Below the pieces are notes generated by a model that made no database searches, was not told the origin of the DNA, and saw only the letters and a list, made by a program, of their open reading frames with translations. Both the position numbers and the translations under genes were made by a program. Source: a virus (lineage: Duplodnaviria; Heunggongvirae; Uroviricota; Caudoviricetes). Taken from it: 48,835 nt of DNA. Below, one piece after another: positions 1-48,835 of the stretch. The stretch is from the IMG/VR virus record IMGVR_UViG_2740892051_000004, positions 1 through 48,835 of that record; one strand, written 5' to 3'. Every line of letters starts with the position of its first letter. Within the stretch, counting starts at the first letter, position 1.

Positions 1-228
1 ATGAGCTTATTGCCTCGGGAAAACGCACCCCAAAAAAGATATAGACTTCTGAGAATATCAGAAGTGATTAATTTGACTGGCTTACCCAAGTCAACAATTT
101 ATCTAAAGATAAAGAATGATGAATTTCCGAACCAAGTTTCTATCGGTTCTCGTTCTGTTGCATGGGTGGAGCATGAAGTTAATGAATGGATAGAGAAGAA
201 TATTCTCAATAGAAAATTAAACTCCTAA
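1..228 (+). CDS. alpA: AlpA-family DNA-binding regulator (prophage CP4-57 AlpA-like)
   Basis: 75 aa; HTH core 'RLLRISEVINLTGLPKSTIY' and C-terminal 'VAWVEHEVNEWI' match the AlpA/Vis/Xis small winged-helix pattern. Confidence 0.75.
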   Translation: MSLLPRENAPQKRYRLLRISEVINLTGLPKSTIYLKIKNDEFPNQVSIGSRSVAWVEHEVNEWIEKNILNRKLNS

Positions 229-245
229 ATTGAGGTGGCAAATAT

Positions 246-1106
246 ATGGTTGACAATGTTTTTAAGAAGAAATTGGCATCAATTAAGAACGAACATGTGT
301 CGGTGTTAGATAGTTACAAAGTAAGATCATTTAAAGAGACTCATAGCGACACGGCCTGTATTGTGCGTATTATTGAAATATATTCACTGAATAAGCTGCG
401 AGCTAAAGGTGAAAAGCTGTATTCACTTACGGGGTTAACAGTACCTGATACGGAAACTGTGGCGAATGAGATCAACCTGCTCCTGAGCCGTTATGCCCAG
501 TTGTGTCGTCAGGAAGAGGAAGAGTTATCTTTCCGGCAGCGTGAAGTGACAAATGCGGAAGTTGCATGGAAAAGCACATTCTCAAAAAACGGCGTCAGTA
601 GCATTGCTGAAGCCAAAACGAATAAAATGGGGCATGCTGAACGAGCGGATGCTGAACGGTATTACCATCTGGCTGTTTCCCGGTTGAATGAACAACATAG
701 TCGATTGAGCACGATCAAGCTTTTGCCGGGAGTACTGGCCGATGAAGGAAACTACATTGGGAAGGGAATCGATAAGCGTTTACTGAATATATTTCCTCAA
801 TCCGGCCAGATCCCTGCTGATTTTATTTCTGTATTTAATGACAGTGACGTTGTCCGTGATATTAAATTTATTACTGATGCACTCAAGTCTTTATCTGATT
901 CCGTGAGTGAAATTATTAGTCGTTGTAGCGTTCCAACTGATCGTTATGTATTAAATAACGGTGGAATGGCAAGAGCTATGGCTTACAGGGAGTACTATCG
1001 AGCAGATAATTATGTATTACGTTCAGTCGTAAGTGACCGGGATTATGTTGAGCATGTAATGAAATACAATCTGGTTACTGAGTACAAAAATAAAATCTTT
1101 TCTTAA
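246..1106 (+). CDS. hypothetical protein; possibly capsid scaffold (GpO-like by position and size only)
   Basis: 286 aa ORF directly upstream of capsid-like gene in P2 O-N order; no recognisable motif. Confidence 0.45.
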   Translation: MVDNVFKKKLASIKNEHVSVLDSYKVRSFKETHSDTACIVRIIEIYSLNKLRAKGEKLYSLTGLTVPDTETVANEINLLLSRYAQLCRQEEEELSFRQREVTNAEVAWKSTFSKNGVSSIAEAKTNKMGHAERADAERYYHLAVSRLNEQHSRLSTIKLLPGVLADEGNYIGKGIDKRLLNIFPQSGQIPADFISVFNDSDVVRDIKFITDALKSLSDSVSEIISRCSVPTDRYVLNNGGMARAMAYREYYRADNYVLRSVVSDRDYVEHVMKYNLVTEYKNKIFS

Positions 1107-1128
1107 ATACTTAAAAAGGTGAAAAACT

Positions 1129-2133
1129 ATGTATGCCTTCAAAACTGAAAGGCCGGACGCAGCACGTCGTTATCATAATAAATTCGTCACTGGCACTAAC
1201 TATCAGGAAGAATCAAACAGACGCTTTGCATTAAGCGAACCTACTGAAAATATACTGCGTACCTCAATTCTGGAATCCGGGTGGCTTATTAAAAATATTA
1301 CCCTACGTGATGTTAACGCCGTGTCAGGTAATGCCGTCAATATTGGTGCCAGTGAACTGTATACCGGACGTGTGGATGGTGGCCGTTTCCACAAAAAAAT
1401 GGCAATCAATGGTACGGAGTTCTTTCTGACAGAGACGGATACCTGCGCCCGGATCAGCTATTCCGATATGTCTCATATTTACCATACCGGCGTGCCGGAT
1501 GAGTTTGAGAAAACGGTTGAGAGCTTTTTTGCCCAGGCATATGCGCTGGACATGCTGCGGGTCGGTTTCAACGGTGTGTCGATTGCAAATACTACAAACC
1601 CGGAAATCAATAAAAAAGGCGAGGATGTCAATATTGGCTGGCATGCACTGGCGAAAGCCTACGGGAACGGAAAGCAAATCATCTCTGAGCCTGTCACTCT
1701 GGGAGAGACTGGCACCTGGAAAAATATTGATGCTCTGGCCAACCATCTGATTACAGAGCTTATTGCTGAGCAGTTTCGTGAAGATCCTCGTCTGGTTGTA
1801 CTGGTTGGGGCAGAGCTGGCAGCACATCAACGCCTGAAGTTATTTAATGCCGCAGACCGCCCGTCTGATGTGAATGCGGCACAGATGGCTACAAGTTCTG
1901 TTGCTGGCCGCTTTGCGTTTATTCCCCCGTTTATGCCGGGTAAGCGTCTGGCAGTAACGACGCTGGATAATCTGCATATTTACACTCAGGCGATAACACG
2001 CTGGTTTCGTGCTGAGTTTGATGATGAAAGCAGTGAATACGTGCATTCCTACCTGCGCAATGAAGGTTATGCACTCGGTGAACCTGAACTGTACGCGGCT
2101 GTTGATGAGTGCACCCTGACGTTTGCGGATTGA
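1129..2133 (+). CDS. putative P2-family major capsid protein (GpN-like)
   Basis: 334 aa; segments 'GFNGV...NIGW...IDALA...DPRLVVLVGAELAAH' resemble recalled P2 GpN conserved blocks; needs HMM confirmation. Confidence 0.5.
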   Translation: MYAFKTERPDAARRYHNKFVTGTNYQEESNRRFALSEPTENILRTSILESGWLIKNITLRDVNAVSGNAVNIGASELYTGRVDGGRFHKKMAINGTEFFLTETDTCARISYSDMSHIYHTGVPDEFEKTVESFFAQAYALDMLRVGFNGVSIANTTNPEINKKGEDVNIGWHALAKAYGNGKQIISEPVTLGETGTWKNIDALANHLITELIAEQFREDPRLVVLVGAELAAHQRLKLFNAADRPSDVNAAQMATSSVAGRFAFIPPFMPGKRLAVTTLDNLHIYTQAITRWFRAEFDDESSEYVHSYLRNEGYALGEPELYAAVDECTLTFAD

Positions 2134-2147
2134 CTTAGCGACAGAAA

Positions 2148-2176
2148 GACCCGCTCAGAGGCGGGTCTCGTTTACA
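2148..2176 (+). terminator. rho-independent terminator after capsid-like gene
   Basis: GACCCGC-tcagag-GCGGGTC hairpin followed by TCGTTT, 15 nt after stop codon. Confidence 0.5.
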
Positions 2177-2271
2177 GCATCAGGAAAAATGAAGAACTAT
2201 TTTTAAGCAGAGGCTTAAGCATGCCAGCGTTAATTAATCCAGGCAATGATCAGTTTTCGGTTATAAATTTC

Positions 2272-2301
2272 TTGCCTCACCAGGAATGCGCGGGATATAG
2301 T
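2272..2301 (+). promoter_or_regulatory. candidate sigma70 promoter (P4 PLE-like) upstream of immunity region
   Basis: TTGCCT-N18-TATAGT upstream of seqA. Confidence 0.3.
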
Positions 2302-2332
2302 TTAAAGGTTGCCGCAAAATCGGCAGCCGGGC

Positions 2333-2356
2333 GTAGGAACCCGTGTTATCTGAAGG
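2333..2356 (+). promoter_or_regulatory. seqA-like target of CI immunity RNA
   Basis: GTAGGAA...TCTGAAGG; both arms exactly complementary to seqB (2510..2531). Confidence 0.5.
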
Positions 2357-2469
2357 CGATACTACACGCGCTAGGCGTGTTTTTTTGTGTCGCAGCTTTG
2401 ACTCACCTAAAATTTATGGTGTGGTGGCTGATTGTATTTTTTTATTTTTTACGCCACATCATCAGAATT

Positions 2470-2545
2470 ATGGTAGTCCAGGCGGGGCAGCTTTCGGGCT
2501 GGCCGGTATCCTTCAGAGCCGGTATTCCTACCCCCGTCTGGGCTA
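2470..2545 (+). ncRNA. P4-type CI immunity RNA (C4 antisense RNA-like) containing seqB; ends approximate
   Basis: seqB core CCTTCAGA-GCCGGTA-TTCCTAC at 2510..2531 is antiparallel-complementary to seqA and seqC; sits in a leader upstream of early ORFs as in P4. Confidence 0.45.
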
Positions 2546-2557
2546 CCACCCATGAGC

Positions 2558-2599
2558 GTAGGAACTCCGGTGGTAGCGTTACCCGCTATCTGAAGGAGG
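2558..2599 (+). promoter_or_regulatory. seqC-like target overlapping ribosome-binding site of first early ORF
   Basis: GTAGGAA...TCTGAAGG repeat of seqA, ending in AGGAGG 9 nt before ATG at 2608. Confidence 0.5.
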
Positions 2600-2607
2600 T
2601 TGCCATT

Positions 2608-2811
2608 ATGGCTACAGTCCCTGCTTTATCTCACCCTGAATTTACCTTTGTCTTTCTGGCTGTCCGCCGTACAGACCGTGATGCCCGTCCACGCCCTGTG
2701 CGTGTAATCGCAGAATGCGAGCATGCTGCACGCCTTAAACTTGCCACTGAATTTATCCTGAGCTTTGCTGCCCGTATCCCTGTGAAAAGAGCCGGGGAGG
2801 TGGTTGCATGA
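2608..2811 (+). CDS. hypothetical small early protein (satellite)
   Basis: 68-codon 3' part of track ORF 2221..2811 starting at internal ATG with AGGAGG RBS; upstream part of that ORF spans the RNA region. Confidence 0.5.
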   Translation: MATVPALSHPEFTFVFLAVRRTDRDARPRPVRVIAECEHAARLKLATEFILSFAARIPVKRAGEVVA

Positions 2812-3044
2812 AATCCATGAATTTTAAGCAAGGCTGCATATTGAGTGAACAGGGGGAGAGTCGTCTGTTACGGGCGGCACTGGCCAGTGAGTTTCTTGCA
2901 GAGGTCTTGTCCGTGCCCACAGTGAATGGAGCGAGAACTGTTTCAGCGGAAGGCGCTGCGGCTTTAGTGGCCTGTATTGCCGAACAACTGGATGGCGTTG
3001 TTAAGGAAACCAGCACAATTAAGGGAGTGATGCGCGATGAATAA
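2808..3044 (+). CDS. hypothetical protein (satellite early operon)
   Basis: 78 aa ORF, 4-nt overlap with flanking ORFs (translational coupling). Confidence 0.5.
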   Translation: MKSMNFKQGCILSEQGESRLLRAALASEFLAEVLSVPTVNGARTVSAEGAAALVACIAEQLDGVVKETSTIKGVMRDE

Positions 3045-3447
3045 TAATCAAAATTTAAAGGCGCATGCTTTACGAACAGCAGTCTTACGCTACTACATTG
3101 CTGATGCATTCATTTCCTTAATGGTGCGTGTTCATAATGAACCTGTTTATATTGAAGATGGCGAACGAATAGAACTCTCCCACGAAAAAGTGGTGAGTAA
3201 TATTATTTACCATATTGAAATGCCGTGGGTGAATGAGTTTGGGGCTGATGCTGGTTGCATACTGGCCGCAGAGAAACTGGAAAAAATGCTTAAACCAGGC
3301 TTTATGTCAGAAAATATTCGCCTGTCAGTTTTTGGTGTCACAGAGATGCGTGAGGTTTACCGGGATATTATTTTCGGAGCACCTGATGGCGAACTACCCG
3401 AAGGTTTTGAATTTGTGAAGCCGGAAGGTCAGGAGGTGCTGCTGTGA
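3037..3447 (+). CDS. hypothetical protein upstream of primase (position of P4 eps/orf151)
   Basis: 136 aa ORF overlapping primase start by 4 nt. Confidence 0.55.
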   Translation: MNNNQNLKAHALRTAVLRYYIADAFISLMVRVHNEPVYIEDGERIELSHEKVVSNIIYHIEMPWVNEFGADAGCILAAEKLEKMLKPGFMSENIRLSVFGVTEMREVYRDIIFGAPDGELPEGFEFVKPEGQEVLL

Positions 3448-6131
3448 AAACACCGTCTGTATCCACGATTTCCGGAGCTGCAATTGGGCGCTGGCCTTAT
3501 ATCCTGTCAGCATTAGGTATTAAAGTACCGTCCGCAGGACATCATGGGGCTTGCCCTGCCTGTGGTGGAAAAGATCGTTTTCGACTGGACGATAAAGCGG
3601 GGCGAGGGACGTGGTTTTGTAATCAGTGCGGTCATGGCGATGGTCTTGATCTGGTTCGTCTGGTGACAGGAAGAAAGATAAAAGAAGTCGCCGGGATGGT
3701 ATCTGAGGCGCTTGCATTACCAGAAATACAGGAGAAGCCCGCATTGCCAGCCAGGAAAAAGGCCGCAGGAAAAGAAGCGGGCGCGGAGCGATATACCAGA
3801 CTCAGACAGCAGTCCTGCAATGGTGAGCCGGTCTATCTGACAAATAAGAGCTTACACGGGTATTCACTTCCCTTGCTGTCACAGCCTTTGAATCTGGCCG
3901 GAATAACATTTTCCACCGGTTCATTACTGCTGCCTTTGACGGATATTTCCGGGAATATTACTGGTGGCCAGCTTATCAATCCTGACGGGGATAAAAGTCT
4001 GCTGCCCGGTAGCCAGCTGTCTGGCGCATTCATTGCCCTGACCGATATACCCGCTGAAACACCTGAACAGGTGATTATCACTGAGGGTTTTGCCACGGCG
4101 CTTACCGTCAGTCTGCTGACTGAAGGATGGATCGTGGCGGCTGTCGCTGCCACCAATTTACTGAAGGTGACGGAGCAGATCCGAAAACGCTGGCCGGAAA
4201 CCCGGATCATTCTGGCCGGAGATAATGATCTGGCTGACGGCAAAGAAAACACCGGGCGTATTCAGGCAGAGAAAGCCGCCAAAGCGGTGGATGGCTGGGT
4301 AACGCTCCCTCCGGTACGCCATAAGGCTGACTGGGATGATTATCGGCAGGAAGTGGGGAAAGAACGGGCGAGAGATGCCTTTCGTGAAGAAATGACGCTG
4401 CATGGCAAAGGGCAGACCCGTTTACCAGAAGGGTTCCGGCTGACAAAAGAATATTTGTGGTACGACAAGCTGGTTAATAAGTCTGATGGTGATACAGAGA
4501 TACGTAATATCAAAATTTGCAGTCCGTTGCGGGTGACGGCAATCACCAGTGATGCTGATGGAAGTAATTACGGGCGTTTGCTGGAATGGGAAGATACCAA
4601 CGGAAACAGCCGTAAATGGGCAATGCCGATGGAGATGCTGGGCGGTAGCGGGGAAGAACTGCGCCGCGTTCTGCTGGTTAACGGGCTTTCTTACATCAAC
4701 ATTAACGGCATGGCCAGAGCATTCCTGATGGAATATATCTCGCTGTGTAAACCGGACAGAAAAGTAACCTGTGTGAATAAAACTGGCTGGCACGGCGGGG
4801 TTTACGTTCTCCAGGATGAAGTGATAGGGCGCGAAGCCCAGTCAGTCATCTTACAAACATCGAGTGTGCAGGGGCGTGATTTTCGTGTCAGCGGCACATC
4901 AGAGGGCTGGCGTGAAAATATAGGCCGTTATTGCATAAAGAATGCCCGTCTTGCCTTTGCGGTGAGTCTGGCATTTGCTGCCCCCCTTCTGAAACTGGTT
5001 GGTATCGGCGGTGGAGGTTATCACCTCAAAGGGGAATCCACAGACGGTAAAACCACGACGATGAAAGTGGCTGCATCAGTATGTGGTGGAACAGATTTCT
5101 GGCATACGTGGCGGGCGACGGGGAATGCCTTAGAAGGAACGGCGAGCCGCCGCAATGATGCCACGCTGATGCTGGATGAAATCCGGGAGGTTGACGGCAG
5201 GGAGGCGGGAAATATCGCTTATATGCTGGCTAACGGGCAGGGCAAAGCCAGAGCCAGAACAGATGGTTCGGTAAGGGAAACCAACCGCTGGAATCTGTTG
5301 TTTCTGTCTACCGGGGAACTGTCACTGGTAGAGCATGCGGCAAGCGCCGGGGAACGTACGTATGCCGGGGTTGAGGTCAGAATGATCCAGATCCCAAGCG
5401 ATTCGGGCAAGTATGGCGTGTTTGAAGAACTTCATGGCTTCAGTAGCGGGAAAACCCTGGCTGAGCATCTTGAGCAGCACGTAGCGCATTATCATGGTGC
5501 ACCATTCCGCGACTGGCTGTATTGCCTGACCGCTGATCTGCCGGAACTGACCAGTCAGGCGAAAGCCTTATTGAAAGAGTATACCCGAAGGCTGACGCCG
5601 GAAAATGCCGGGAATCAGGTTGGCCGGGCTGTTACCCGTTTTGCTCTGGTTGCGATGGCCGGGGAGCTGGCCACAAAAGCGGGCATCACAGGATGGCCGG
5701 AGGGAGAGGCCTTTCGTGCCGCTCAAAGCTGTCTGGCTGCATGGATGGCTGACCGGGGCCATACAGCTAATCAGGAAGATAAAGCGGCACTTGAACAGGT
5801 TCGGGACTTCATGACGCGTAATCAGTTCAGTCGGTTTGCTGACTGGAATGACGACAGGAACCGGCCTGTTTCAATGATGGGATTCAGAAAAGTCGATAAA
5901 GGAGACAACGTGACAGAGCCGGTTGTGACGTTCTACGTTCTCCCGTCAGGCTGGAAGGAGATCTGTAAGGGATTTGACTCGCGTAAGGTGGCCAGGTTGT
6001 GTGTGGACGCGGGCTGGCTGAAACCCGGTGAAGATGGCCGGACGCAAAACAGCATTCGCCTGCCAGAAATAGGGCTTAAACGTGTGTACCAGTTCAATAC
6101 ACAGGTACTGGGAAGCGCTGAACCTGAGTGA
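3444..6131 (+). CDS. P4 alpha-type primase-helicase
   Basis: 895 aa; N-terminal zinc ribbon CPACGG...CNQCGH, TOPRIM-like 'ITEGF...ILAGDNDL', Walker A 'GESTDGKTT'. Confidence 0.9.
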   Translation: MKTPSVSTISGAAIGRWPYILSALGIKVPSAGHHGACPACGGKDRFRLDDKAGRGTWFCNQCGHGDGLDLVRLVTGRKIKEVAGMVSEALALPEIQEKPALPARKKAAGKEAGAERYTRLRQQSCNGEPVYLTNKSLHGYSLPLLSQPLNLAGITFSTGSLLLPLTDISGNITGGQLINPDGDKSLLPGSQLSGAFIALTDIPAETPEQVIITEGFATALTVSLLTEGWIVAAVAATNLLKVTEQIRKRWPETRIILAGDNDLADGKENTGRIQAEKAAKAVDGWVTLPPVRHKADWDDYRQEVGKERARDAFREEMTLHGKGQTRLPEGFRLTKEYLWYDKLVNKSDGDTEIRNIKICSPLRVTAITSDADGSNYGRLLEWEDTNGNSRKWAMPMEMLGGSGEELRRVLLVNGLSYININGMARAFLMEYISLCKPDRKVTCVNKTGWHGGVYVLQDEVIGREAQSVILQTSSVQGRDFRVSGTSEGWRENIGRYCIKNARLAFAVSLAFAAPLLKLVGIGGGGYHLKGESTDGKTTTMKVAASVCGGTDFWHTWRATGNALEGTASRRNDATLMLDEIREVDGREAGNIAYMLANGQGKARARTDGSVRETNRWNLLFLSTGELSLVEHAASAGERTYAGVEVRMIQIPSDSGKYGVFEELHGFSSGKTLAEHLEQHVAHYHGAPFRDWLYCLTADLPELTSQAKALLKEYTRRLTPENAGNQVGRAVTRFALVAMAGELATKAGITGWPEGEAFRAAQSCLAAWMADRGHTANQEDKAALEQVRDFMTRNQFSRFADWNDDRNRPVSMMGFRKVDKGDNVTEPVVTFYVLPSGWKEICKGFDSRKVARLCVDAGWLKPGEDGRTQNSIRLPEIGLKRVYQFNTQVLGSAEPE

Positions 6132-6156
6132 TTATCGCGTGAGTCTTATTTTTATG

Positions 6157-6347
6157 AGGTAACACTGGTAACAGAGGTAACACCCGTTACTGATGCGGTT
6201 CTTCAGTGTTACCAGTCAAAAATACTGACTGGTAACAGAGGTAACAAAAAATGGTGTGTTACCACGCGTTACCTCTTGATTTTGCTAACTGGTAACAGAT
6301 TAAATCCTTTTAAATCAATAGCGTTACACGTGTTACCAGTGTTACAC
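6157..6347 (+). repeat. iteron array (satellite ori/crr-like)
   Basis: More than 12 copies of GGTAACA / TGTTACC in both orientations immediately after primase stop. Confidence 0.6.
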
Positions 6348-6413
6348 GTTCAGAACAAGAGGTAGGGATCCAAATCCCTTCTTCTGGCGGGCAACAGTAT
6401 AGGGCACAGAACG

Positions 6414-6686
6414 ATGAAGATGATGAGAATGTACTGCCCCACATGTCAGGCAGTAGCACGGATAGGTAAAACAAACAGGAAACACCCACAACTGTACGAT
6501 GTGTACTGCTATTGCTCTAATGTGGAGTGCGGTCACTCGTTTGTGATGAATGTTGCTTTCTCCCATTCCGTTAGTCCAAGCGCGCTGAACGGGCAGGGAA
6601 GGGTTAAAGAGCTGATTGATGCAATTCCACCCGAGGAACGGGAAAAGGCTTTAAAGTTGCTGCTGGCTGCGCAAAAGAATGGGTAA
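6414..6686 (+). CDS. Ogr/Delta-family zinc-finger late transcription activator
   Basis: 90 aa; 'CPTCQ...16 aa...CYCSNVECGH' C4 zinc finger as in P2 Ogr / P4 Delta. Confidence 0.7.
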   Translation: MKMMRMYCPTCQAVARIGKTNRKHPQLYDVYCYCSNVECGHSFVMNVAFSHSVSPSALNGQGRVKELIDAIPPEEREKALKLLLAAQKNG

Positions 6687-7365
6687 AGTATGCGTCGGGA
6701 ATGGCCGATCTGTTCCCGGAACCTGAACACAGGATTTCAGTTTATACGGTCATAAAATTATTATTTTTCAACTGGTTATCTTCTTCATGTTTCACAAACC
6801 TTCATAAAATCACACACCTAAAATTAATTATCCATTTAATATCATAGAGTTGCGTATTCAGGCCATAGATTCGACGGACAGTAAAACTGAAAAAAAATGA
6901 ATTTCTTTTCATTCTTTTCAGTTCCTGTATCGCAGTACATCTCGAGGACTGGCACGGACTGGCGGTATCGTTTGTAAAAAATCCAGGCTGAAAATTTTTA
7001 GTGATATGAAAACCGCAGGCGGGTGCGGTGTAGTGCCGTTTTGGTCTGTCGAGCGTATATTTTCCTTTTTCACGATTGCTGCATATCAAAACGAATGTGC
7101 AGATATCAGGCCGTGTCAAACCGTGAATCGTGGAGCCTAAATGCCCAAACTACGTTTGTAGACCTAGCTAGGGGAAGGTTTCCACATATACTGCTACCTA
7201 TCTTCCAGTCGCTGGTGAGGATCAAGGTAAGCTAACTGGTGAACAAGAAAAGTACTTTCGTATCTTGCGTACTCGTTTTTTTTGATTAGTATGTACAGGT
7301 AGTAACTGGATGGTGAGAATTCGTCATAACTTATCAAATTGCATGATGTTTATAGAGTATGAGTA

Positions 7366-8247
7366 ATGAGTCATAATAAAAAGGAATATGCTAAATTTTT
7401 CCGTCGCCCCATTTTTTCATCCTTAGCAAAAGGTAAGGATATTTCGGATTTATTTGGGAGTTTTGATTCTTACTGCTATGAAACACTGTTTTCAAACAAT
7501 GATAATAATGAACATGAGATTTCACTAAGGGATTTATTTACATCATTATATGATTTTTTGCGTCTGAATTATAGAAATGAATATGTTTATAAGACAGCAC
7601 TTGTCAATAAAATAATATTCGGTAAGCACAGCCCAAAAACAAGTTCGTCGTCCATAGAGTTACCAATTAAAAACTCTATAGTGGATGTTGCGGTGTTTAA
7701 TGGTACGTCTACAGCTTACGAGATTAAGACAGAGTATGATTCACCAAAAAGGTTGATTACTCAAGCCCCTGATTATTTGGATGTTTTTGATAAAGTGTAT
7801 ATAGTTACACATCCAGAGTATGCAAGTAAATATTGTGCTTTAAATCTCCCCAGAGTGGGAGTTATGGTTTTGAATAAAAAAGATCAATTGAGTGTCATTA
7901 AGGAGGCAGATTCAAATATTGATTATATTAAAAGTGACAGCTTGTTTTCAGTTCTTAGAAAGGAAGAGTTCTTAGCTATAATAGAAGATTACACTTCAAC
8001 TAAAATAAATATGCCTAACGGATTGGTTTATGAATATTGTAAAGAGATATTCATGCAGATGCCATTAAACATAGCAAATAAATACTTTATCTCTGCTATG
8101 AAAAAAAGATGTAACGATAAAGTTTTTTTGGATTATATTTATTCTCTTCCAGCATGTTTACGTGTTTTAGGTTATGCAACACCATTATCAAGAAAGCAAA
8201 AAGAATTCATCATGAATTTGATGGATGTAAAAATTAAAATTTGTTGA
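7366..8247 (+). CDS. PD-(D/E)xK nuclease-like protein, first gene of AT-rich cargo cassette (candidate defense)
   Basis: 293 aa; 'SIVDVAVFNGTSTAYEIKTEY' gives D...E-x-K catalytic signature; Lys/Asn/Ile-rich, strongly AT-rich DNA. Confidence 0.7.
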   Translation: MSHNKKEYAKFFRRPIFSSLAKGKDISDLFGSFDSYCYETLFSNNDNNEHEISLRDLFTSLYDFLRLNYRNEYVYKTALVNKIIFGKHSPKTSSSSIELPIKNSIVDVAVFNGTSTAYEIKTEYDSPKRLITQAPDYLDVFDKVYIVTHPEYASKYCALNLPRVGVMVLNKKDQLSVIKEADSNIDYIKSDSLFSVLRKEEFLAIIEDYTSTKINMPNGLVYEYCKEIFMQMPLNIANKYFISAMKKRCNDKVFLDYIYSLPACLRVLGYATPLSRKQKEFIMNLMDVKIKIC

Positions 8248-8268
8248 TATCCTCAGGAGTTGTAAGTT

Positions 8269-9219
8269 ATGTATAGCCCATATTTGTATGCGAGAAGTAC
8301 AGAGTTATTATGCCTTAGGGACCTCGTTGCGAAGGGAGTTAGCCTAAATGGTCTGCTACCAATTTTAGAACCAATTAACGTCAATACGAGAAATTTATTA
8401 ACATGTTTAAATGTTTGGAATTCTGACATAATTGTTATCCTTAATCCTTATCAGGAAGATTTTTCTTCACACAATAACGTCTTAACTTTAAATCAAAATT
8501 TATCAAGTGTATTAACAAATAAAAATAATATCATCTCTGGATATCTTATTCAGCCCAATACAACGATTAATGATATTAATAATTGGTTGAATGCTAACTT
8601 AAATAGACGAGTTGCACTTCTATATGATAATCCATCATTATCCAACTCTGATATTCAGTTGTTGGCGACAAATCAATTGATTAGTTATCATGTTGTTTTA
8701 AATAATAAAATGCTTCCTAATCAGTGCGCTCTTCTTCCTTTGTCGAAGTTAATTATTATTAGCGATAACTTTAGAAAGTTAGCAAAAAATGCTGATTATA
8801 ATGGGCCGGAACTTTTCACGCACGCACATCAATTCGTGGGACAAAATTACTTAGGATTTGGCGATTATACAATTACTGGCCAGGTACTAGATCTTGGAGG
8901 TGGTCAACCTTCTGCTGTTGCCGCACATTTGGTGTTCAAGAATTTACAAGCGAATACAGTTTGGATTCGTCATTTTGTATCAAGCAACACGCAACGAGGA
9001 AGTTCAAATGTTACTGCAAAATTTTTAGATGTTTCAGATCAAATTACAAATCTTGTTCCCCAACATCCAACCCAGTTTGGCAGCAACATTGGTCTTAACT
9101 ATTATTATTACAATAGTCAACCAACTGTAAGGCATTTCCCTGGGTTGCCAAAAAACAAACAGTATCAAATTACTCACCATATTTGTTTCATGCTGGATTT
9201 AATAGCAGGTCGTATTTAA
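8269..9219 (+). CDS. hypothetical protein, second gene of cargo cassette (partner of nuclease-like protein)
   Basis: 316 aa, 21 nt after upstream gene, same AT-rich composition; N-terminus 'MYSPYLYARSTELLCLRDL'; 3' end overlaps integrase stop by 21 bp. Confidence 0.7.
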   Translation: MYSPYLYARSTELLCLRDLVAKGVSLNGLLPILEPINVNTRNLLTCLNVWNSDIIVILNPYQEDFSSHNNVLTLNQNLSSVLTNKNNIISGYLIQPNTTINDINNWLNANLNRRVALLYDNPSLSNSDIQLLATNQLISYHVVLNNKMLPNQCALLPLSKLIIISDNFRKLAKNADYNGPELFTHAHQFVGQNYLGFGDYTITGQVLDLGGGQPSAVAAHLVFKNLQANTVWIRHFVSSNTQRGSSNVTAKFLDVSDQITNLVPQHPTQFGSNIGLNYYYYNSQPTVRHFPGLPKNKQYQITHHICFMLDLIAGRI

Positions 9220-10374
9220 TAAGCTAGCGTACCATTCCATCATTACTTGTCGATCTTTAATATATTGCGCATGATTGTAAGTACCTCGAATAGAGTTCTT
9301 ATCAACATGCGCAAGCTGCATTTCAATCCAGGCACTTTCAAACCCATGCTCATGCAAGATGGTGCTCATGGTATGCCTGAAACCGTGACCCGTTAACCGA
9401 CCGTGATAACCCAGTAGTTTTATCACTTTGTTGATGCTGGCTTCGCTCATTGGTTTACTGACGTCATTCCGGCCAGGGAAAACGAGGCTGTAATTCCCTG
9501 TTATTTCTTGCAGCTTTTTCAGGATATTGATCGCCTGAGTTGATAACGGAACCAGATGGGGGCGGCGTTTCTTCATCCGTTCTTTGGGGATCTCCCATAA
9601 GGCATTATCTAAATCAAACTCAGCCCATTCCGCTGCACGTAGTTCAATTGTTCGCACGCCTGTTAGCATCAACAGCTGCGTGGCGTATTTGGTAACTAAA
9701 CTGCCCTGATAGTTATCCAGAGCATTAACGAACTCGGGCAACTCGCTTTCAGTCAGGAACGGGAAGTGTTGGGTTTTAGGTTTGTTGAGTGCGATAGCTA
9801 AATCGGGTGCAAAATTATACTTTGCTCTACCAGTGGCAACAGCATAACGAAGCACTTCACCACAGCGGCGGCGGATCTTACTGGTTTGCTCTAGCGCACC
9901 TCTTTTCTCTATTTTTTGCAGGACGGTTAGCAGTTCTAATGGTTCAATCTGCTCAATTGGGCGCTGGCCGATAAAAGGAAAAATATCCTTTTCCATACAA
10001 TTGAGAACCTCTTTTGCATAACCCTCTGACCAGGTGGCTTTTTTCGATGAGTGCCATTCTCTGGCCACAGACTCAAAGCTGTTCTCATGCGCGAACTGCA
10101 AAGCAATCTTATCTGCTTTTCTGGCTTCACTTGGGTTTATCCCGTTGGCTAACATCGAACGCGCTTCATCACGTTTGGTACGTGCCTGTGCCAACGACAC
10201 ATCGCCATATACGCCAAAGGAAATCATCTTAGGCTTACCTGCAAAGCGATAGCGAAAACGCCAGCCTTTACTGCCCGCTGTGTCGATCAGGAGTGATAGC
10301 CCCATACCATCGTTAAGCGTATAGGGTTTGTCCTTCGGTTTTGCTCTTTTTATTTGGATGTCAGATAGCAGCAT
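9199..10374 (-). CDS. int: tyrosine integrase, P4 family with arm-type N-terminal domain
   Basis: Start set at internal Met 'MLLSDIQIKRAKPK'; C-terminal catalytic 'HGFRHT...LAHVD...RGTYNHAQY'. Confidence 0.9.
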   Translation of the reverse strand: MLLSDIQIKRAKPKDKPYTLNDGMGLSLLIDTAGSKGWRFRYRFAGKPKMISFGVYGDVSLAQARTKRDEARSMLANGINPSEARKADKIALQFAHENSFESVAREWHSSKKATWSEGYAKEVLNCMEKDIFPFIGQRPIEQIEPLELLTVLQKIEKRGALEQTSKIRRRCGEVLRYAVATGRAKYNFAPDLAIALNKPKTQHFPFLTESELPEFVNALDNYQGSLVTKYATQLLMLTGVRTIELRAAEWAEFDLDNALWEIPKERMKKRRPHLVPLSTQAINILKKLQEITGNYSLVFPGRNDVSKPMSEASINKVIKLLGYHGRLTGHGFRHTMSTILHEHGFESAWIEMQLAHVDKNSIRGTYNHAQYIKDRQVMMEWYASLLNTTCY

Positions 10375-10622
10375 GTGTATAGAAAAAAGATCGAACTCAG
10401 TTATACACAATGTTATACGCAAAGATGTATAGATTCCATTAGAAATAATGGTACTTTGCTGGACGAGTATAAGGAGATGATATCAGTTAAAACAGTGAGT
10501 TATGGAATTAATTGAACTTAGTGAGAAGTGTTCATGGTGTCCCCTGCAGACATCTACTTGGCGCGGCAGGGGATTGATTGGAATGGTGTTTTTTAGATGT
10601 GAAAAATATTTTACCCGCTATT

Positions 10623-10823
10623 TTACCCATTGGCGCGGCTTAAGAGCTTATTTTTGAATTCACAATGGTCACGATATAACCATCTTGCTCGCCCGTGGAT
10701 AACTTTGGCTTTTGGCAGGTCGCCGGACTTAATCCGGTCATAGATGAAGGTCTTACCGAAGCCAGTATCAGCCATGATGAATTTCAAATCAACCAGTGAA
10801 TCAGGCTGTAGTTCGTGTTGCAT
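10623..10823 (-). CDS. AlpA-family excisionase-like protein upstream of integrase
   Basis: 66 aa; 'LKFIMADTGFGKTFIYDRIKSGDLP...HGRARWLYRDHCEF' AlpA/Xis pattern; cotranscribed orientation with int. Confidence 0.7.
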   Translation of the reverse strand: MQHELQPDSLVDLKFIMADTGFGKTFIYDRIKSGDLPKAKVIHGRARWLYRDHCEFKNKLLSRANG

Positions 10824-11156
10824 GAGTGCTATCTCCGAATAGGGAATCGAACCTGCAAATCAGGTAATAAAAAAACCGCTATCAGGCGGCTTGGTGTTCT
10901 TTCAGTTCTTCAATTCGAATATTGGTTACGTCTGCATGTGCTATCTGCGCCCATAGCATCCAGTGGTCATAGCAGTCGTTGATGTCCTCTGCTTAGATAA
11001 CTCTGTTGAATGGCTCTCCATTCCATTCTCCTGTGACTCGGAAGTGCATTTATCATCTCCATAAAACAAAACTCGCCGTAGCGAGTTCAGATAAAAGAAA
11101 TCCCCGCGAGTGCGAGGATTGTTATTCACCTTTGACGGCAAGTTGCAGGTTAGCCA

Positions 11157-11417
11157 TTACCGCACCTCCAGTCTCCATACCGCCTGACCAATCCGGCTGG
11201 CATGGGTATCTTTGGATACTGTTCCGTCTTTAGCCAGCTCCATAAGAATTTTGCGCAAATCTGCCGAACGCCATTCTTCATCAGGAAATTCCTTCTCCAT
11301 TGCCAACCGCAAATTCCAGGTTGCCATCCTGAATGGATATTCCCCGCCGAGAGCTTTATCTTGCAGGGCAGCCCGGGAACGCATCACCTGCAAAACCTTC
11401 TCTTTTACATCCATCAT
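11157..11417 (-). CDS. hypothetical early-left protein
   Basis: 86 aa ORF overlapping next gene by 4 nt. Confidence 0.5.
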   Translation of the reverse strand: MMDVKEKVLQVMRSRAALQDKALGGEYPFRMATWNLRLAMEKEFPDEEWRSADLRKILMELAKDGTVSKDTHASRIGQAVWRLEVR

Positions 11418-12427
11418 TTCGCCTCCTGCGGCGGTTCTGGTAGCGGCATCCAGTGGGTTACATTGCGGCTCTGCGTTTCGAAGAACTCCTCACCATTGCG
11501 GACGACATCAAAAAACTCACCGTCTCGATATTGCGCATAAAGAACGAATGCACCATCACATAAAATAATTACGTGCTGACCATCATCAGGCATTCGCTGA
11601 CTACAGCTTATCCAACCATCCGGAGTTACCGGATAGTTGCCATTCACAAGGTCAGCTCGAACATATAGTGTGTCATCATGGTGCTGATTGTGGCTGCACC
11701 ACGTTAATTCGCTTAACTCGCCATCTTCTGGCCATACTCCAGCTGTTTGCAGCCAGATATGGGCTGGCGCATCTTGGCAAGGTGTATTAACTGGCAACTT
11801 GTAAGTTTGGCTTACAGGTTCAGCACCATGAAGCATGGCCTTTTTGGTGGCGTCACCGAAATGGTCTACCATATCGAGGTTTTGCTCTGTATGATTGCCA
11901 TCCTGAGCAGTAGGCGTGTTCCGGTGATTATTCCATGAACCAACTTCGTCCAGTTGTTCTGAATTACAGAGCAACTTAAGCATTGCTGCGCGGCACTGGT
12001 TGAAGCCAATCGCCCATGCGGATGCCAGAGCAATGTCGTCTTCCGTGATTTCCTCTGGCACATCTTCCCAGCCGACTACTTCCGGCACAGATACCGGCGC
12101 TGGCTGCGGTAACTTTGGTGCTGTCAGTGATTCCAGTTCTGCGATTTTCTGCTCTGCATTTGTCGCCAAAGCAAGCTGCTTCCCAGCAACCACCTGCCAC
12201 GCTGATGATTCCTGTTTCCACTTATCCAACTCATCCAGTAGTGCAAGCACGTTTTCTGGTCCGGTCAGAAATTTGAAGGCGTTGAGCGCATCAATATCCA
12301 CACCGTAATCTTTAAGTTCCTGTTCACTTAACAAATCGTCATCATATGGCAACATTAACAGGCGTTCCATTGCTGGAATTGCACGTTCTGCCGCCTCACG
12401 CAGTCCCTGATAGTCAATCTTGCTCAC
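11414..12427 (-). CDS. Ea22-like / DUF551-type early protein
   Basis: 337 aa; C-terminal 'GWISCSQRMPDDGQHVIIL' block typical of lambdoid Ea22/DUF551 proteins; position between xis and recombination genes. Confidence 0.55.
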   Translation of the reverse strand: MSKIDYQGLREAAERAIPAMERLLMLPYDDDLLSEQELKDYGVDIDALNAFKFLTGPENVLALLDELDKWKQESSAWQVVAGKQLALATNAEQKIAELESLTAPKLPQPAPVSVPEVVGWEDVPEEITEDDIALASAWAIGFNQCRAAMLKLLCNSEQLDEVGSWNNHRNTPTAQDGNHTEQNLDMVDHFGDATKKAMLHGAEPVSQTYKLPVNTPCQDAPAHIWLQTAGVWPEDGELSELTWCSHNQHHDDTLYVRADLVNGNYPVTPDGWISCSQRMPDDGQHVIILCDGAFVLYAQYRDGEFFDVVRNGEEFFETQSRNVTHWMPLPEPPQEAK

Positions 12428-12731
12428 TGGTTGACTCCTTTGCTGGGCTTTCTAGCTTCTGAGTGGTTGTATCAAACTCAAACAACTTAACCACGTCATC
12501 AAACAGGACATAATCGCCATCAGAATCTTCAGTCATGTCAGCGCCACAATCCTGACCGAACGAGTCACAACCATCCATATCAAGCTCGTATCGCTTCAGG
12601 TTTGCGATATTTGATAAATTCAGCGCCAGTACAGCCAGGTCATAAACCTCTTCGGCGGTATACCCTGCACCATGCCCATACATTTCAATGCGGGATATGA
12701 TTTCTTCTACCCGTTGTTTTGTGATCGTCAT
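12414..12731 (-). CDS. hypothetical acidic early protein
   Basis: 105 aa ORF in operon. Confidence 0.5.
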   Translation of the reverse strand: MTITKQRVEEIISRIEMYGHGAGYTAEEVYDLAVLALNLSNIANLKRYELDMDGCDSFGQDCGADMTEDSDGDYVLFDDVVKLFEFDTTTQKLESPAKESTSEQD

Positions 12732-13207
12732 TTTTGCTCACCTCCCTGTTCTTCCAGAAAAATACGCATAGCCTCAAGCATCTCTTCGGTGTCATACGGA
12801 GACAGCTTGTCACACAGGATGTGTTCAATGCTGTTAATGAACTTTCGGATTGCTTTGCGTTCAATTTCAGCCAGAAAAGCATCGGTGGCTGGGGTGTCTG
12901 ATTGCAGAGACTTTGCGCGATAGTCATTCCACCCTCTTGCATACATGGGATTAACTTGCACTCCATCTTTTACGCAATATGCCTGCCCTCCACGGTTGAT
13001 AACCTTGATTTCGTCCATAGCGCCAGACTTCAGCCCCGCATTCTCCGCTGCCAGCGCCGCGTACTTGGCCTCCGCTTCAGCAAATTTACGCACAAGATAT
13101 TCAGCGTTTGTTTCGTTAACCTTTAAATCACATGGGATGCATTTACCTTTCAGAAATCCATCCATCTCAATTAGTGTCATTTGTTTCATTTTTTCCCACT
13201 CCGCCAC
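12728..13207 (-). CDS. hypothetical early protein
   Basis: 159 aa ORF, 4-nt overlap with neighbour. Confidence 0.5.
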
Positions 13208-13383
13208 ATCGCATTCAGATATTTGTTTTGATTCACTGACGGAAAAGAATTTCTCTTTAGCAATTCCTCTCTCGATGGCATTGGCTTTACGCGTTGGCGA
13301 ATAATCATTTCTGCCGGAAGAATGCCGGGATTGTATGCAAGTCCTCTCATGGTAAATTCCTCAGTCATTACTGATAGCGCCAT
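13186..13383 (-). CDS. hypothetical small protein
   Basis: 65 aa ORF in operon context. Confidence 0.4.
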
Positions 13384-47677: not shown

Positions 47678-48835
47678 TCACTCCACCTTTTCATCAAGCC
47701 AGTCCGCCCACCATTGCATCATTTCTCTGCGCTTATCGAGATACTGAGCATGGTTGTAAATTCCACGTACAGATCCGCCGTTGGCATGTGCCAGTTGCAC
47801 TTCAATGGCGTCGGCAGGCCATTCGTGCTCGTTCATAATCGTGCTGAATTCATGCCTGAATCCGTGACCGCTTTCCAGCCCCTCATAGCCGATTTGTTTG
47901 ATCACAAGCAATACCGCGTTCTCGCAGATTGGTTTCTTCTTATCGTTGCGCCCGGCAAAAACAAACTCTGAGACTGGTTTGGTGATTGAGCTTAGCGTAG
48001 TAAGAAGTTCAACCACCTGGTCTGACATAGGAACCACATGAATTTTGCGTCCCTTCATCACACTGGCGTCGATGGTGATAATCCTGTTTTCAAAATCGAC
48101 GTTCTTCCATTGCATGGAGCGAAGCTCTTTCGTTCTTAGGGCTGTGTAGCGTAAAACTTTGGTCGCAATGAGCGATACGATACTTCCTGAAAATGTTGCC
48201 AGTGCTTTGTTGAATGCCGGGATCTGGTCTGCAGGAAGAAACGGGAAGTTCTTCTTGCGGTATCCCTTCATGGCGTCAGCAAGGTCAGGTGCCGGGTTAT
48301 ATTTAGCCCTACCAGTAACAATAGCGTAACGAAAAACCTCGCCGCATCTTCTGCGGGCTTTGTTGGCTCGCTCCATTGCACCGCGATCTTCAAATCTGCG
48401 GATTACTTCCAGCAGTTGCATCGGCTCAATATCCTGAATCTCAAGACCGCCGATGATGGGTAAAATGTCGTCATCAAACATTTTGGCAAGTTCAGTTGCA
48501 TAGCCTACTGACCAGACTTGCTTCTTGTGCTCGTACCATTCCTTGTAAATCGCACTAAATGAATTGTTGTTAGACGAAGCCTTTTTCGCCTTTACCGGAT
48601 CGATGCCAACCGAGATGTCTTTCCTCGCAGTCCATGCCTTATCCCTTGCTTCCTGCAAAGTCATAAGCGGATATTTTCCGACGGTCAGGATTTTCTCCTT
48701 ACCGTCAATCTTGTAGCGAAGCTGCCATACCTTTTTCCCTGACACAGGGACATAAAGGTACAGGCCATTACCATCGAGAAGGCGGTATGGTTTTTCTTTT
48801 GGCTTTGCTGCTTCAATCTGCTTAACGGTGAGCAT
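47678..48835 (-). CDS. int: tyrosine integrase, P4 family (second copy); start codon at window edge
   Basis: 385 aa; paralogous to 9199..10374 ('RRRCGEVFRYAIVTGRAKYNPAPDLA', 'HGFRHE', 'RGIYNHAQY'). Confidence 0.9.
   Translation of the reverse strand: MLTVKQIEAAKPKEKPYRLLDGNGLYLYVPVSGKKVWQLRYKIDGKEKILTVGKYPLMTLQEARDKAWTARKDISVGIDPVKAKKASSNNNSFSAIYKEWYEHKKQVWSVGYATELAKMFDDDILPIIGGLEIQDIEPMQLLEVIRRFEDRGAMERANKARRRCGEVFRYAIVTGRAKYNPAPDLADAMKGYRKKNFPFLPADQIPAFNKALATFSGSIVSLIATKVLRYTALRTKELRSMQWKNVDFENRIITIDASVMKGRKIHVVPMSDQVVELLTTLSSITKPVSEFVFAGRNDKKKPICENAVLLVIKQIGYEGLESGHGFRHEFSTIMNEHEWPADAIEVQLAHANGGSVRGIYNHAQYLDKRREMMQWWADWLDEKVE

Follow-up and report, generated by a model that had tools for sequence, protein, structure and literature searches.

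A 48.8 kb provirus record read as two elements in tandem at argW: a P4-like satellite and an HK620/Sf6-like prophage

Described systems at argW and at P4-type hotspots

The closest described counterpart of this locus is the argW integration module of KplE1 (CPS-53), HK620 and Sf6, comprising the integrase IntS together with TorI (Panis et al. 2007, 2010; PMC2951348, PMC3509656). TorI has been reported to function as a recombination directionality factor (RDF; PMC3509656, PMC2951348), IntS/TorI-dependent excision has been shown experimentally with KplE1 and HK620 substrates (PMC2951348, PMC3509656), and the 16-nt core of KplE1 has been published as CTGCAGGGGACACCAT (PMC2951348). The second point of comparison is P4 with the P4-like satellites (Rousset et al. 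2022, PMC9122126; Moura de Sousa & Rocha 2021, PMC8628076; NAR 2026, PMC13586616), which are defined by seven core components, i.e. Int, AlpA, Ash/epsilon, Alpha, Delta, Sid and Psu (PMC13586616), and for which tandem elements at one tRNA att site have been noted (PMC8628076).

We analyzed a stretch of 48 835 nt, here called the window, and comparison with these systems makes it very probable that it represents a tandem array of a P4-like satellite and a P22-like prophage, both inserted at the 3' end of the tRNA-Arg gene argW. In E. coli, the array would have dsdC and yfdC as its neighbours. The satellite is assigned to positions 1–10549 with its distal att about 0.5 kb further left, giving a size of about 10.5–11 kb, and the HK620/Sf6-like prophage to 10534 and onwards to beyond 48835, with torI at one end and intS at the other. 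The prophage has intS and torI at its opposite ends as in KplE1, HK620 and Sf6, with intS likewise about 160 bp from argW, an identical 16-nt core and a TorI identical at 100%. It differs from them in that the dsdC-side flank of the torI-side att is here replaced by the int-side arm of the satellite, and in that the window ends shortly before the intS-side att and argW. The satellite shares with P4 and its relatives a size of about 11 kb, a P4-type integrase by a tRNA 3' end, AlpA, Ash, an alpha-type primase and Ogr/Delta. Unlike P4, however, it has no detectable Psu or Sid, instead carrying a 286-aa ORF and a full-length P2-family capsid homologue; its alpha and delta genes are co-oriented and adjoin the hotspot; and it targets argW, whereas P4 targets leuX. 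As in known tandem arrays, the core would be regenerated to give element–core–element–core–tRNA with each element keeping its own int, but here the two partners are a satellite and a P22-like phage, having paralogous integrases (45% identity) that use the same core.

The att core and the homology breaks

The core, ATGGTGTCCCCTGCAG, was found at 10534..10549 on the minus strand and is the reverse complement of CTGCAGGGGACACCAT, that is, the argW 3' end plus T. Reverse-complemented, positions 10535–10549 are identical to argW nt 61–75 (CTGCAGGGGACACCA), and the full 16-mer matches exactly what is annotated as 'attP core' in HK620 (HK620 1368–1383). An initial annotation, made by eye, had recognized neither a repeated att core nor a tRNA 3' fragment, and had suggested that the core might be short and AT-rich. 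That no repeat is visible was correct, as the 15-mer occurs only once in the window with up to 2 mismatches allowed, because the two other core copies are placed shortly beyond its ends, about 0.5 kb on the left and about 0.16 kb on the right. These outer positions were read from the closest complete genome (99.9% at the right end), which contains three direct copies of the core: near dsdC, at the junction and within argW. With regard to tRNA fragments, nothing att-like was found at 9.1–9.3 kb or 47.57–47.68 kb, as claimed, but the region 10.4–10.9 kb matches argW nt 61–75 and 46–61, and the GC-rich 16-bp argW 3' end at 10534–10549 leaves no place for an AT-rich core. ARAGORN, which had been proposed for an extended contig and was run on the window only, reported no argW but solely the phage's own tRNA-Asn and tRNA-Thr (26.05–26.21 kb), the argW fragment of 15 nt being below the length that tRNA finders can detect. 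When the argW pattern was extended to 25 nt, no match was obtained with ≤3 mismatches, which shows that towards the phage the identity to the tRNA ends with the 16-bp core.

Three other candidate sites were rejected. Neither a lambda-like att downstream of int (9.1–9.3 kb) nor an att between the tailspike gene and intS (47.57–47.68 kb) gave any core-like match with ≤2 mismatches, and only promoter- or terminator-like consensus matches were seen in these two regions. A second argW-derived 16-mer, GGAATCGAACCTGCAA, lies at 10843..10858 (minus strand) on the far side of torI, where the reverse complement of the window is identical to argW nt 46–61 in the T-arm; this 16-mer is kept in HK620 and in all related loci and shares positions with the promoter annotated 'phage integration' in HK620, but it was dismissed as a crossover site, as every homology break falls at 10534–10549. 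In the attP of KplE1 and HK620, a torI-bearing segment of 293 bp interrupts argW nt 46–75, its insertion point being exactly nt 61.

Homology breaks exactly at the core, with different partners on the two sides. To the left the window is identical over the 1500 nt compared to SK1144, in which the satellite sits alone beside an intact argW, and positions 1–10549 as a whole differ from SK1144 by 1 mismatch in 10 549 nt. The satellite of SK1144 is flanked by direct repeats of 20 bp, each being the core followed by GAAT. To the right the window has 96–98% identity over 300 nt to the torI arm of HK620 attP, against about 25% for the other pairings. The int-proximal arm of the satellite (10375..10533), with TATACAC-type repeats at 10375–10432 and presumably the int promoter, is 100% identical to that in satellite-alone genomes, and five of the six TATACAC heptamers in 25.5 kb fall in the two att arms of the satellite. 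On the other side of the core lies the torI-side arm of the prophage (10550..10622), termed 'attR' in the KplE1 literature; the HK620 counterpart contains an annotated attP repeat at HK620 1441–1463. The proposed alignment to known att pairs was thereby informative, with the HK620/KplE1 core identical and the torI arm at 96–98%. The proposed search for exact repeats of at least 15 bp found none in the window, and the boundaries were settled by the homology breaks instead, the outer ones being taken from near-identical genomes as the window itself has one core copy. The sequence relationships between the two elements and their att sites are those seen directly in these alignments.

The same hybrid junction was present in 13 complete genomes and in 12 IMG/VR contigs of 19–51 kb, eight of them at 47.8–51 kb, while the reverse order (torI…intS, then alpA…satellite int, then argW) was found in 6 genomes and the reconstructed empty attB was intact in 912 of 5426. 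The satellite and its own integrase were found together in about 420 complete genomes of E. coli, in most cases without an adjoining phage. In all arrangements seen, int keeps with the satellite and torI with intS. A search of IMG/VR for the attP junction of the excised satellite gave 0 matches.

Recombination modules, satellite genes and cargo

The satellite integrase is a P4/IntS-type tyrosine recombinase of 391 aa (9199..10374, minus strand; Pfam Arm-DNA-bind_3, Phage_int_M, Phage_integrase). The longest ORF starts with TTG at 10422, but the ATG at 10374 is the likely start, with RefSeq annotating the 391-aa form and the alignment to IntS (45% identity) opening at residue 2. The gene is transcribed away from att/argW with the core about 160 bp upstream of its start, and in satellite-alone genomes it adjoins an intact argW. 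The prophage integrase IntS (47678..48835, minus strand; 385 aa, Pfam domains, RefSeq 'prophage integrase IntS') has the same tRNA-then-int layout, being transcribed away from argW: in two near-identical genomes (L002 and L020) IntS is followed by tRNA-Arg, with 160 bp beyond the window end from intS to the core within intact argW. It had been expected that attL would lie in or near the 3' end of int, but for both integrases att precedes the gene start by about 160 bp, which contradicts that expectation.

The prophage excisionase gene torI (10623..10823, minus strand) encodes a product 100% identical to E. coli TorI (PDB 1Z4H) and lies 73 bp from the core. The initial annotation had described it as an AlpA-type gene 200 bp upstream of int. 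The distance agrees, being 200 bp if counted from the TTG at 10422, and 248 bp if the ATG at 10374, the likely start, is used. The label is apt insofar as the product belongs to phrog_66 together with AlpA-like excisionases, but the product is TorI and falls below a match to Pfam AlpA. Its implied pairing with the adjoining integrase has to be abandoned, since the att core separates them; by homology torI is the RDF partner of IntS and separate from the satellite integrase. The Pfam AlpA member is instead the satellite gene at 1..228 (plus strand; PF05930 Phage_AlpA, E=5.2e-20; phrog_2790/phrog_66 'excisionase and transcriptional regulator'), which shares 27% identity with TorI. It is the first gene after the distal att copy of the satellite, about 0.5 kb left of the window, and is probably the excisionase/regulator (RDF) partner of the satellite integrase. 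Homology and insertion scars are the basis for supposing that the satellite Int acts on this core, with AlpA as its putative RDF.

The remaining satellite genes include a P4 alpha-like primase-helicase (3444..6131, plus strand; Pfam Zn_Ribbon_Prim, Toprim_3, DUF927), an Ogr/Delta-like zinc-finger late-gene activator (6414..6686, plus strand; Pfam PF04606, E=5.1e-14, and RefSeq annotation) and Ash (Pfam Phage_ASH). Int, AlpA, Ash, Alpha and Delta of the P4 core set (Int, AlpA, Ash/epsilon, Alpha, Delta, Sid, Psu) were hence found in this element of about 10 kb, while no Pfam or PHROG match to Psu or Sid was obtained among the satellite ORFs. A full-length but diverged homologue of the P2-family major capsid protein lies at 1129–2133 (Pfam), and the ORF at 246–1106 encodes the 286-aa product, an orphan without any tblastn match at E<0.01 in 50 697 phage records, a set that we assumed to include P4. 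Literature searches for satellites encoding a P2-family capsid protein returned nothing relevant. A cos-like region (6882..7048), directly upstream of the cargo slot, has 72–77% identity to the termini of ESSI-2-like P2-family phages, the match reaching the last base of the ESSI-2 record. The satellite appears to work like the P4 type but is at best an incomplete-quorum variant, because Psu and Sid were undetected and a P2-family capsid homologue is present instead. It may, more tentatively, stem from an undescribed P4-like lineage with a capsid homologue and an orphan ORF in place of Sid and Psu, and with ESSI-2-type helpers, proposed because the cos-like region resembles theirs. In the KplE1/HK620 attP, in turn, torI may have been inserted into an ancestral tRNA-homologous site of about 30 nt, as suggested by the split of argW nt 46–75 exactly at nt 61. 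We consider this combined scenario possible, although the odds are against it.

The cargo consists of sce7726 (7366–8247, plus strand; NCBIfam NF033832, E=9.6e-52; PADLOC PDLC02989, E=1.2e-18) and sce7725 (8269–9219, plus strand; NCBIfam NF033831, E=1.1e-71; no PADLOC match), putative defence-type genes for which the literature searched gave incidental mentions as annotations and no description of a function. Their GC contents are 0.31 and 0.34 against 0.48 for the backbone. As in the P4-like hotspots of Rousset et al. (2022), a cos-like site is followed by variable low-GC cargo ending at int, and the slot between Ogr/Delta-cos and int holds other cargo in sister elements (L004 and L005), namely an ATP-dependent nuclease or an AAA ATPase plus DUF4435 (PARIS-like). 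Together with the roughly 420 genomes having satellite and integrase combined, these sister cargos bear out an alternative already raised in the initial annotation, that the integrase belongs to the satellite and its cargo sits between delta and int. The convergence of sce7725 with the integrase gene, which ends at 9199 on the minus strand, was confirmed from the ORF list and RefSeq copies, with the same overlap annotated in identical copies (11270..12220 versus 12200..13375). The 21-bp overlap (9199..9219) comprises the last 6 codons plus the stop of each gene, all non-conserved: the sce7725 model stops at residue 311 of 316, and the cargo homology break between sister elements falls inside the last ~15 int codons, which vary with the cargo. 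The overlap is real, and harmless because att lies upstream of int, away from its 3' end.

Formation of the array and its meaning

The core at 10534–10549 is a single copy common to both elements and forms a hybrid att site, with the int-side arm of the satellite to the left and the torI-side arm of the phage to the right. Judging from the characterized KplE1/HK620 system and from P4-type integrases, each element would excise independently: its own Int and RDF would act on its own arm sites and recombine the two core copies flanking it. The predicted attP junctions are GAGAAGTGTTC-ATGGTGTCCCCTGCAG-GAATGTGATTAATG for the satellite and GAACTGATAA-core-ACATCTACTTGG for the phage, whereas the predicted scars are GTGTTC-core-GAATCGAACC after loss of the phage and dsdC-core-ACATCT after loss of the satellite. 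The satellite was probably resident first and had regenerated an argW copy, into which the phage then integrated. This order is suggested by the near-clonality of the satellite across hundreds of genomes, in contrast to the variable prophages beside it; the support is weak because either order yields an identical final structure.

The adjacency of the two elements could be functional, such that leftward transcription upon induction would pass through torI, across the core and into the satellite int, coupling satellite recombination to phage induction. The two genes share a strand, the interval from the torI stop (10623) to the int start (10374) showed no hairpin resembling a terminator, and the arrangement recurs in 13 genomes. 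However, the helper signals are of the P2 family (Ogr/Delta, the P2-type capsid homologue and the ESSI-2-like cos region), the reverse order also occurs, most satellites have no adjoining phage and Int without its RDF should not excise, and we therefore regard such coupling as improbable. Still less credible is that the 48.8 kb make up one composite element, in which a phage captured a satellite module and moves via the outermost att copies. Provirus callers do give one element, the junction is spanned by the 12 IMG/VR contigs and both ends of the window coincide with gene boundaries in the respective element; but an intact core copy splits the parts, each part is found alone or in reverse order at the same site, and 48.8 kb exceeds the 38–39 kb of the HK620 and Sf6 genomes. 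The outermost sites would, moreover, combine the AlpA-side arm of the satellite with the IntS-side arm of the phage, and neither integrase is expected to have both arm sets. That the integrase at 9199–10374 and the gene at 10623–10823, adjacent and co-oriented as int and xis are in lambda and P22, form a lambda-like pair of the prophage with attL and a short AT-rich core near 9.2 kb is refuted by the permuted arrangements, with a characterized att core between the two genes, the integrase accompanying the satellite without any phage in about 400 genomes, torI accompanying intS without the satellite integrase in K-12-type prophages and HK620, no core-like sequence near 9.2 kb, and the prophage owning IntS at 47678–48835.

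Read as a satellite and a prophage sharing argW, the arrangement is ordinary, of known kinds and fully explained. Its value is mainly practical: a 'provirus' of 48.8 kb trimmed at gene boundaries is actually two elements, and crediting the satellite integrase to the P22-like phage leads to a wrong att site, int-xis pairing, genome size and ownership of the defence cargo. The locus also serves as a worked example of how homology breaks against single-element and empty-site genomes can settle att boundaries when only one core is visible. For the elements themselves, argW is a landing site common to the satellite and the phage, whose Int and RDF modules are paralogous (45% and 27% identity), a common use that is expected of tRNA-targeting integrases and comes as no surprise.

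The att core and the satellite–phage junction

The 15 nucleotides at 10535–10549 were found to be the exact reverse complement of nt 61–75 of the tRNA-Arg gene argW, although the initial annotation had recognised no tRNA 3' fragment at 10.4–10.9 kb. Together with the preceding A they constitute ATGGTGTCCCCTGCAG, which occurs a single time in the window even with two mismatches allowed, in agreement with the earlier failure to see a repeated att core. BLAST matches to 9000–11500 divided at one point: 9000–10549 matched many E. coli chromosomes at 100% identity, with the annotations 'sce7725 family protein', 'integrase' and 'tRNA-Arg' there, and 10534–11126 matched HK620, Sf6 and their P22-like relatives at ~97%. 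The chromosomal and phage blocks share exactly 16 bp, annotated in HK620 as 'attP core' between int and hkaC, and the reverse complement of 10534–10549 is the published duplicated KplE1 core, CTGCAGGGGACACCAT (PMC2951348). The tRNA finder ARAGORN did not report the argW fragment; its only predictions in the window were a tRNA-Asn and a tRNA-Thr carried by the phage, at 26 kb.

When six att-type sites were aligned base by base, the left side of the core matched exactly, over the 1500 nt compared, that of E. coli strain SK1144, which carries the satellite alone adjoining an intact argW. The right side was 96–98% identical to the torI-side arm of HK620 attP, and all non-cognate arm pairings gave ~25% identity. 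The SK1144 satellite lies between dsdC and argW, flanked by a 20-bp direct repeat (core plus GAAT), and differs from 1–10549 by one base. A presumed attL had been placed in or next to coding sequence, where the cargo ORF (8269–9219, +) and the integrase ORF (ending at 9199, −) converge. Their 21-bp overlap was confirmed, being annotated by RefSeq also in identical copies, but the att site lies upstream of int instead and the overlap is therefore irrelevant to att.

Element boundaries in other genomes

An empty site reconstructed from the satellite's outer left flank, the core and argW (316 bp) was found uninterrupted at 100% identity, with at least 80% of it covered in 912 of 5426 complete E. 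coli genomes. The junction of satellite int arm, core and torI arm was present in 13 complete genomes and in 12 IMG/VR contigs (L006–L017) of 19–51 kb, eight of them 47.8–51 kb, and the opposite-order junction (intS arm, core, satellite alpA arm) in six genomes; G3X16-2 has the order dsdC, KplE1-like element (torI to intS), satellite (alpA to int), argW. In the complete genome most similar to the window (99.9% at the right end), the core is present as three direct copies: one lies 516 bp to the left of the position that corresponds to the window start, one at the junction and one within argW. The window extends from the satellite alpA ATG at 1 to the intS ATG at 48835. Both cuts fall on gene boundaries a little inside the outer att copies, which is why the window holds no repeat; such edges are typical of a gene-boundary-trimmed provirus call merging two elements.

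Two integrases and the torI-side arm

In all arrangements seen, the 391-aa integrase goes with the satellite backbone and cargo, bearing out the suggestion that it is the satellite's own, and torI goes with intS. The satellite integrase and IntS are paralogous (45% identity, same three-domain architecture), and the satellite AlpA-family protein and TorI are distant homologues (27% identity). Each element therefore has its own pair of integrase and recombination directionality factor (a probable one in the case of the satellite AlpA), at opposite ends, which is the layout described for KplE1 (PMC2951348). The satellite integrase more likely starts at ATG 10374 (391 aa) than at TTG 10422; RefSeq uses this ATG, and the alignment to IntS begins at residue 2. 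Five of the six TATACAC heptamers in 25.5 kb fall in the satellite's two att arms (10375–10432 on the int side), which would fit candidate arm-type Int-binding sites distinct from those of the phage. The AlpA-side arm also holds a (CCCAG)n tract of about 13 units (2665–2727 of L001, the locus carrying this arm), which lies ~0.3 kb to the left of the first window base.

The P22-like prophage (10534 to beyond 48835) encodes a P22-type capsid, portal and tailspike head-binding domain. The small gene noted earlier upstream of the satellite integrase was indeed present: it is torI (10623–10823, −), at the left end of the prophage, with a 66-aa product 100% identical to TorI, an excisionase characterised structurally and genetically (PMC3509656). 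The 385-aa prophage integrase (47678–48835) is annotated IntS in near-identical genomes, where the core lies 160 bp further on, inside argW.

Besides nt 61–75 at 10535–10549 (−), nt 46–61 of argW (TTGCAGGTTCGATTCC, T-arm) occur exactly at 10843–10858 (−). The phage attP thereby holds argW 46–75 in two parts, which divide at nt 61 and have between them a 293-bp segment (10550–10842) containing torI. This split is kept in HK620, the ST131 prophage and the 12 IMG/VR contigs, and the 16-mer overlaps a 'phage integration' promoter and cII site annotated in HK620. We estimate a chance 16-mer argW match at ~1e-3 per whole window, and as far rarer within 300 bp of the core. The arrangement suggests that torI may have been inserted into an ancestral ~30-nt tRNA-homologous attP. 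The interval from the torI stop to the start of satellite int, a gene of the same orientation (10374–10623, −), showed no terminator-like hairpin, so that leftward phage transcription through the att core could conceivably reach the integrase gene of the satellite.

To judge from KplE1/HK620 and from P4-type integrases, recombination between the two core copies that flank an element would excise that element alone and leave its neighbour integrated; no satellite attP junction was found in IMG/VR. Either order of arrival yields the same structure. That the phage came second is weakly favoured, because ~420 of the 5426 complete E. coli genomes, many ST131 among them, carry an almost clonal satellite while adjacent prophages vary.

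Satellite backbone and cargo slot

The satellite gene order begins with an AlpA family gene (1–228, +), an orphan 286-aa ORF (246–1106, +) and a full-length P2-family major capsid homologue (1129–2133, +; PF05125, E=9.5e-67), followed by an Ash/Icd-like gene, an alpha-type primase (3444–6131) and Ogr/Delta (6414–6686), and ends with sce7726, sce7725 and the integrase. Pfam, PHROG and phage tblastn gave no match for the orphan ORF and no recognisable Psu or Sid in the satellite; the orphan ORF and capsid homologue (246–2133) stand in their place. The capsid homologue shares no more than ~50% identity with any capsid protein among the phages of the collection, those of ESSI-2-like phages being closest. 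Several CTGGTAACAGAGGTAACA-like iterons directly 3' of the primase gene (6160–6350) are probably the replication origin. Just upstream of the cargo, the non-coding segment 6882–7048 is 72–77% identical to the genome termini of the P2-family Cronobacter phage ESSI-2 and ESSI2-like Escherichia phages; from this similarity it is probably the satellite cos site, and it hints at the helper family.

The cargo pair sce7726/sce7725 (7366–9219) occupies a known defence hotspot, with a GC content of 31–34% versus 48% for the backbone. PADLOC matched sce7726 to the candidate model PDLC02989 and sce7725 to none, and our literature search found no functional paper on the pair. In sister satellites of the same backbone, the place between Ogr/Delta and int is taken by an ATP-dependent nuclease, or by an AAA ATPase with DUF4435 (PARIS-like), the last cargo gene abutting the int 3' end or overlapping it by 22 bp. 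The initial comparison with P4 hotspots thus held, the slot agreeing with the published P4-like hotspot that adjoins cos and has int as boundary (PMC9122126, PMC13586616). DNA homology among cargo variants stops within the last ~15 int codons (window 9199–9260; 4561–4620 and 4846–4905 in the sister satellites L004 and L005), and the integrase C-terminal tail therefore differs by cargo cassette; the overlapped residues lie outside the conserved part of both sce7725 and integrase proteins. The tails by cargo are KDRQVMMEWYASLLNTTCY, KQRQIMIQYYSDIVYS and LQRKSMMQFYSDLIM.

The prophage belongs plainly to the KplE1/HK620/Sf6 argW module. The satellite has the P4-like tRNA-targeting Int, AlpA, Ash, alpha primase, Ogr/Delta, cos-like site and hotspot, but with no detectable Psu or Sid it is a P4-like variant rather than a full-quorum member. 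As tandem arrays at tRNA sites are already known (e.g. PMC8628076), the integrase and att question is settled and the arrangement is an ordinary one.
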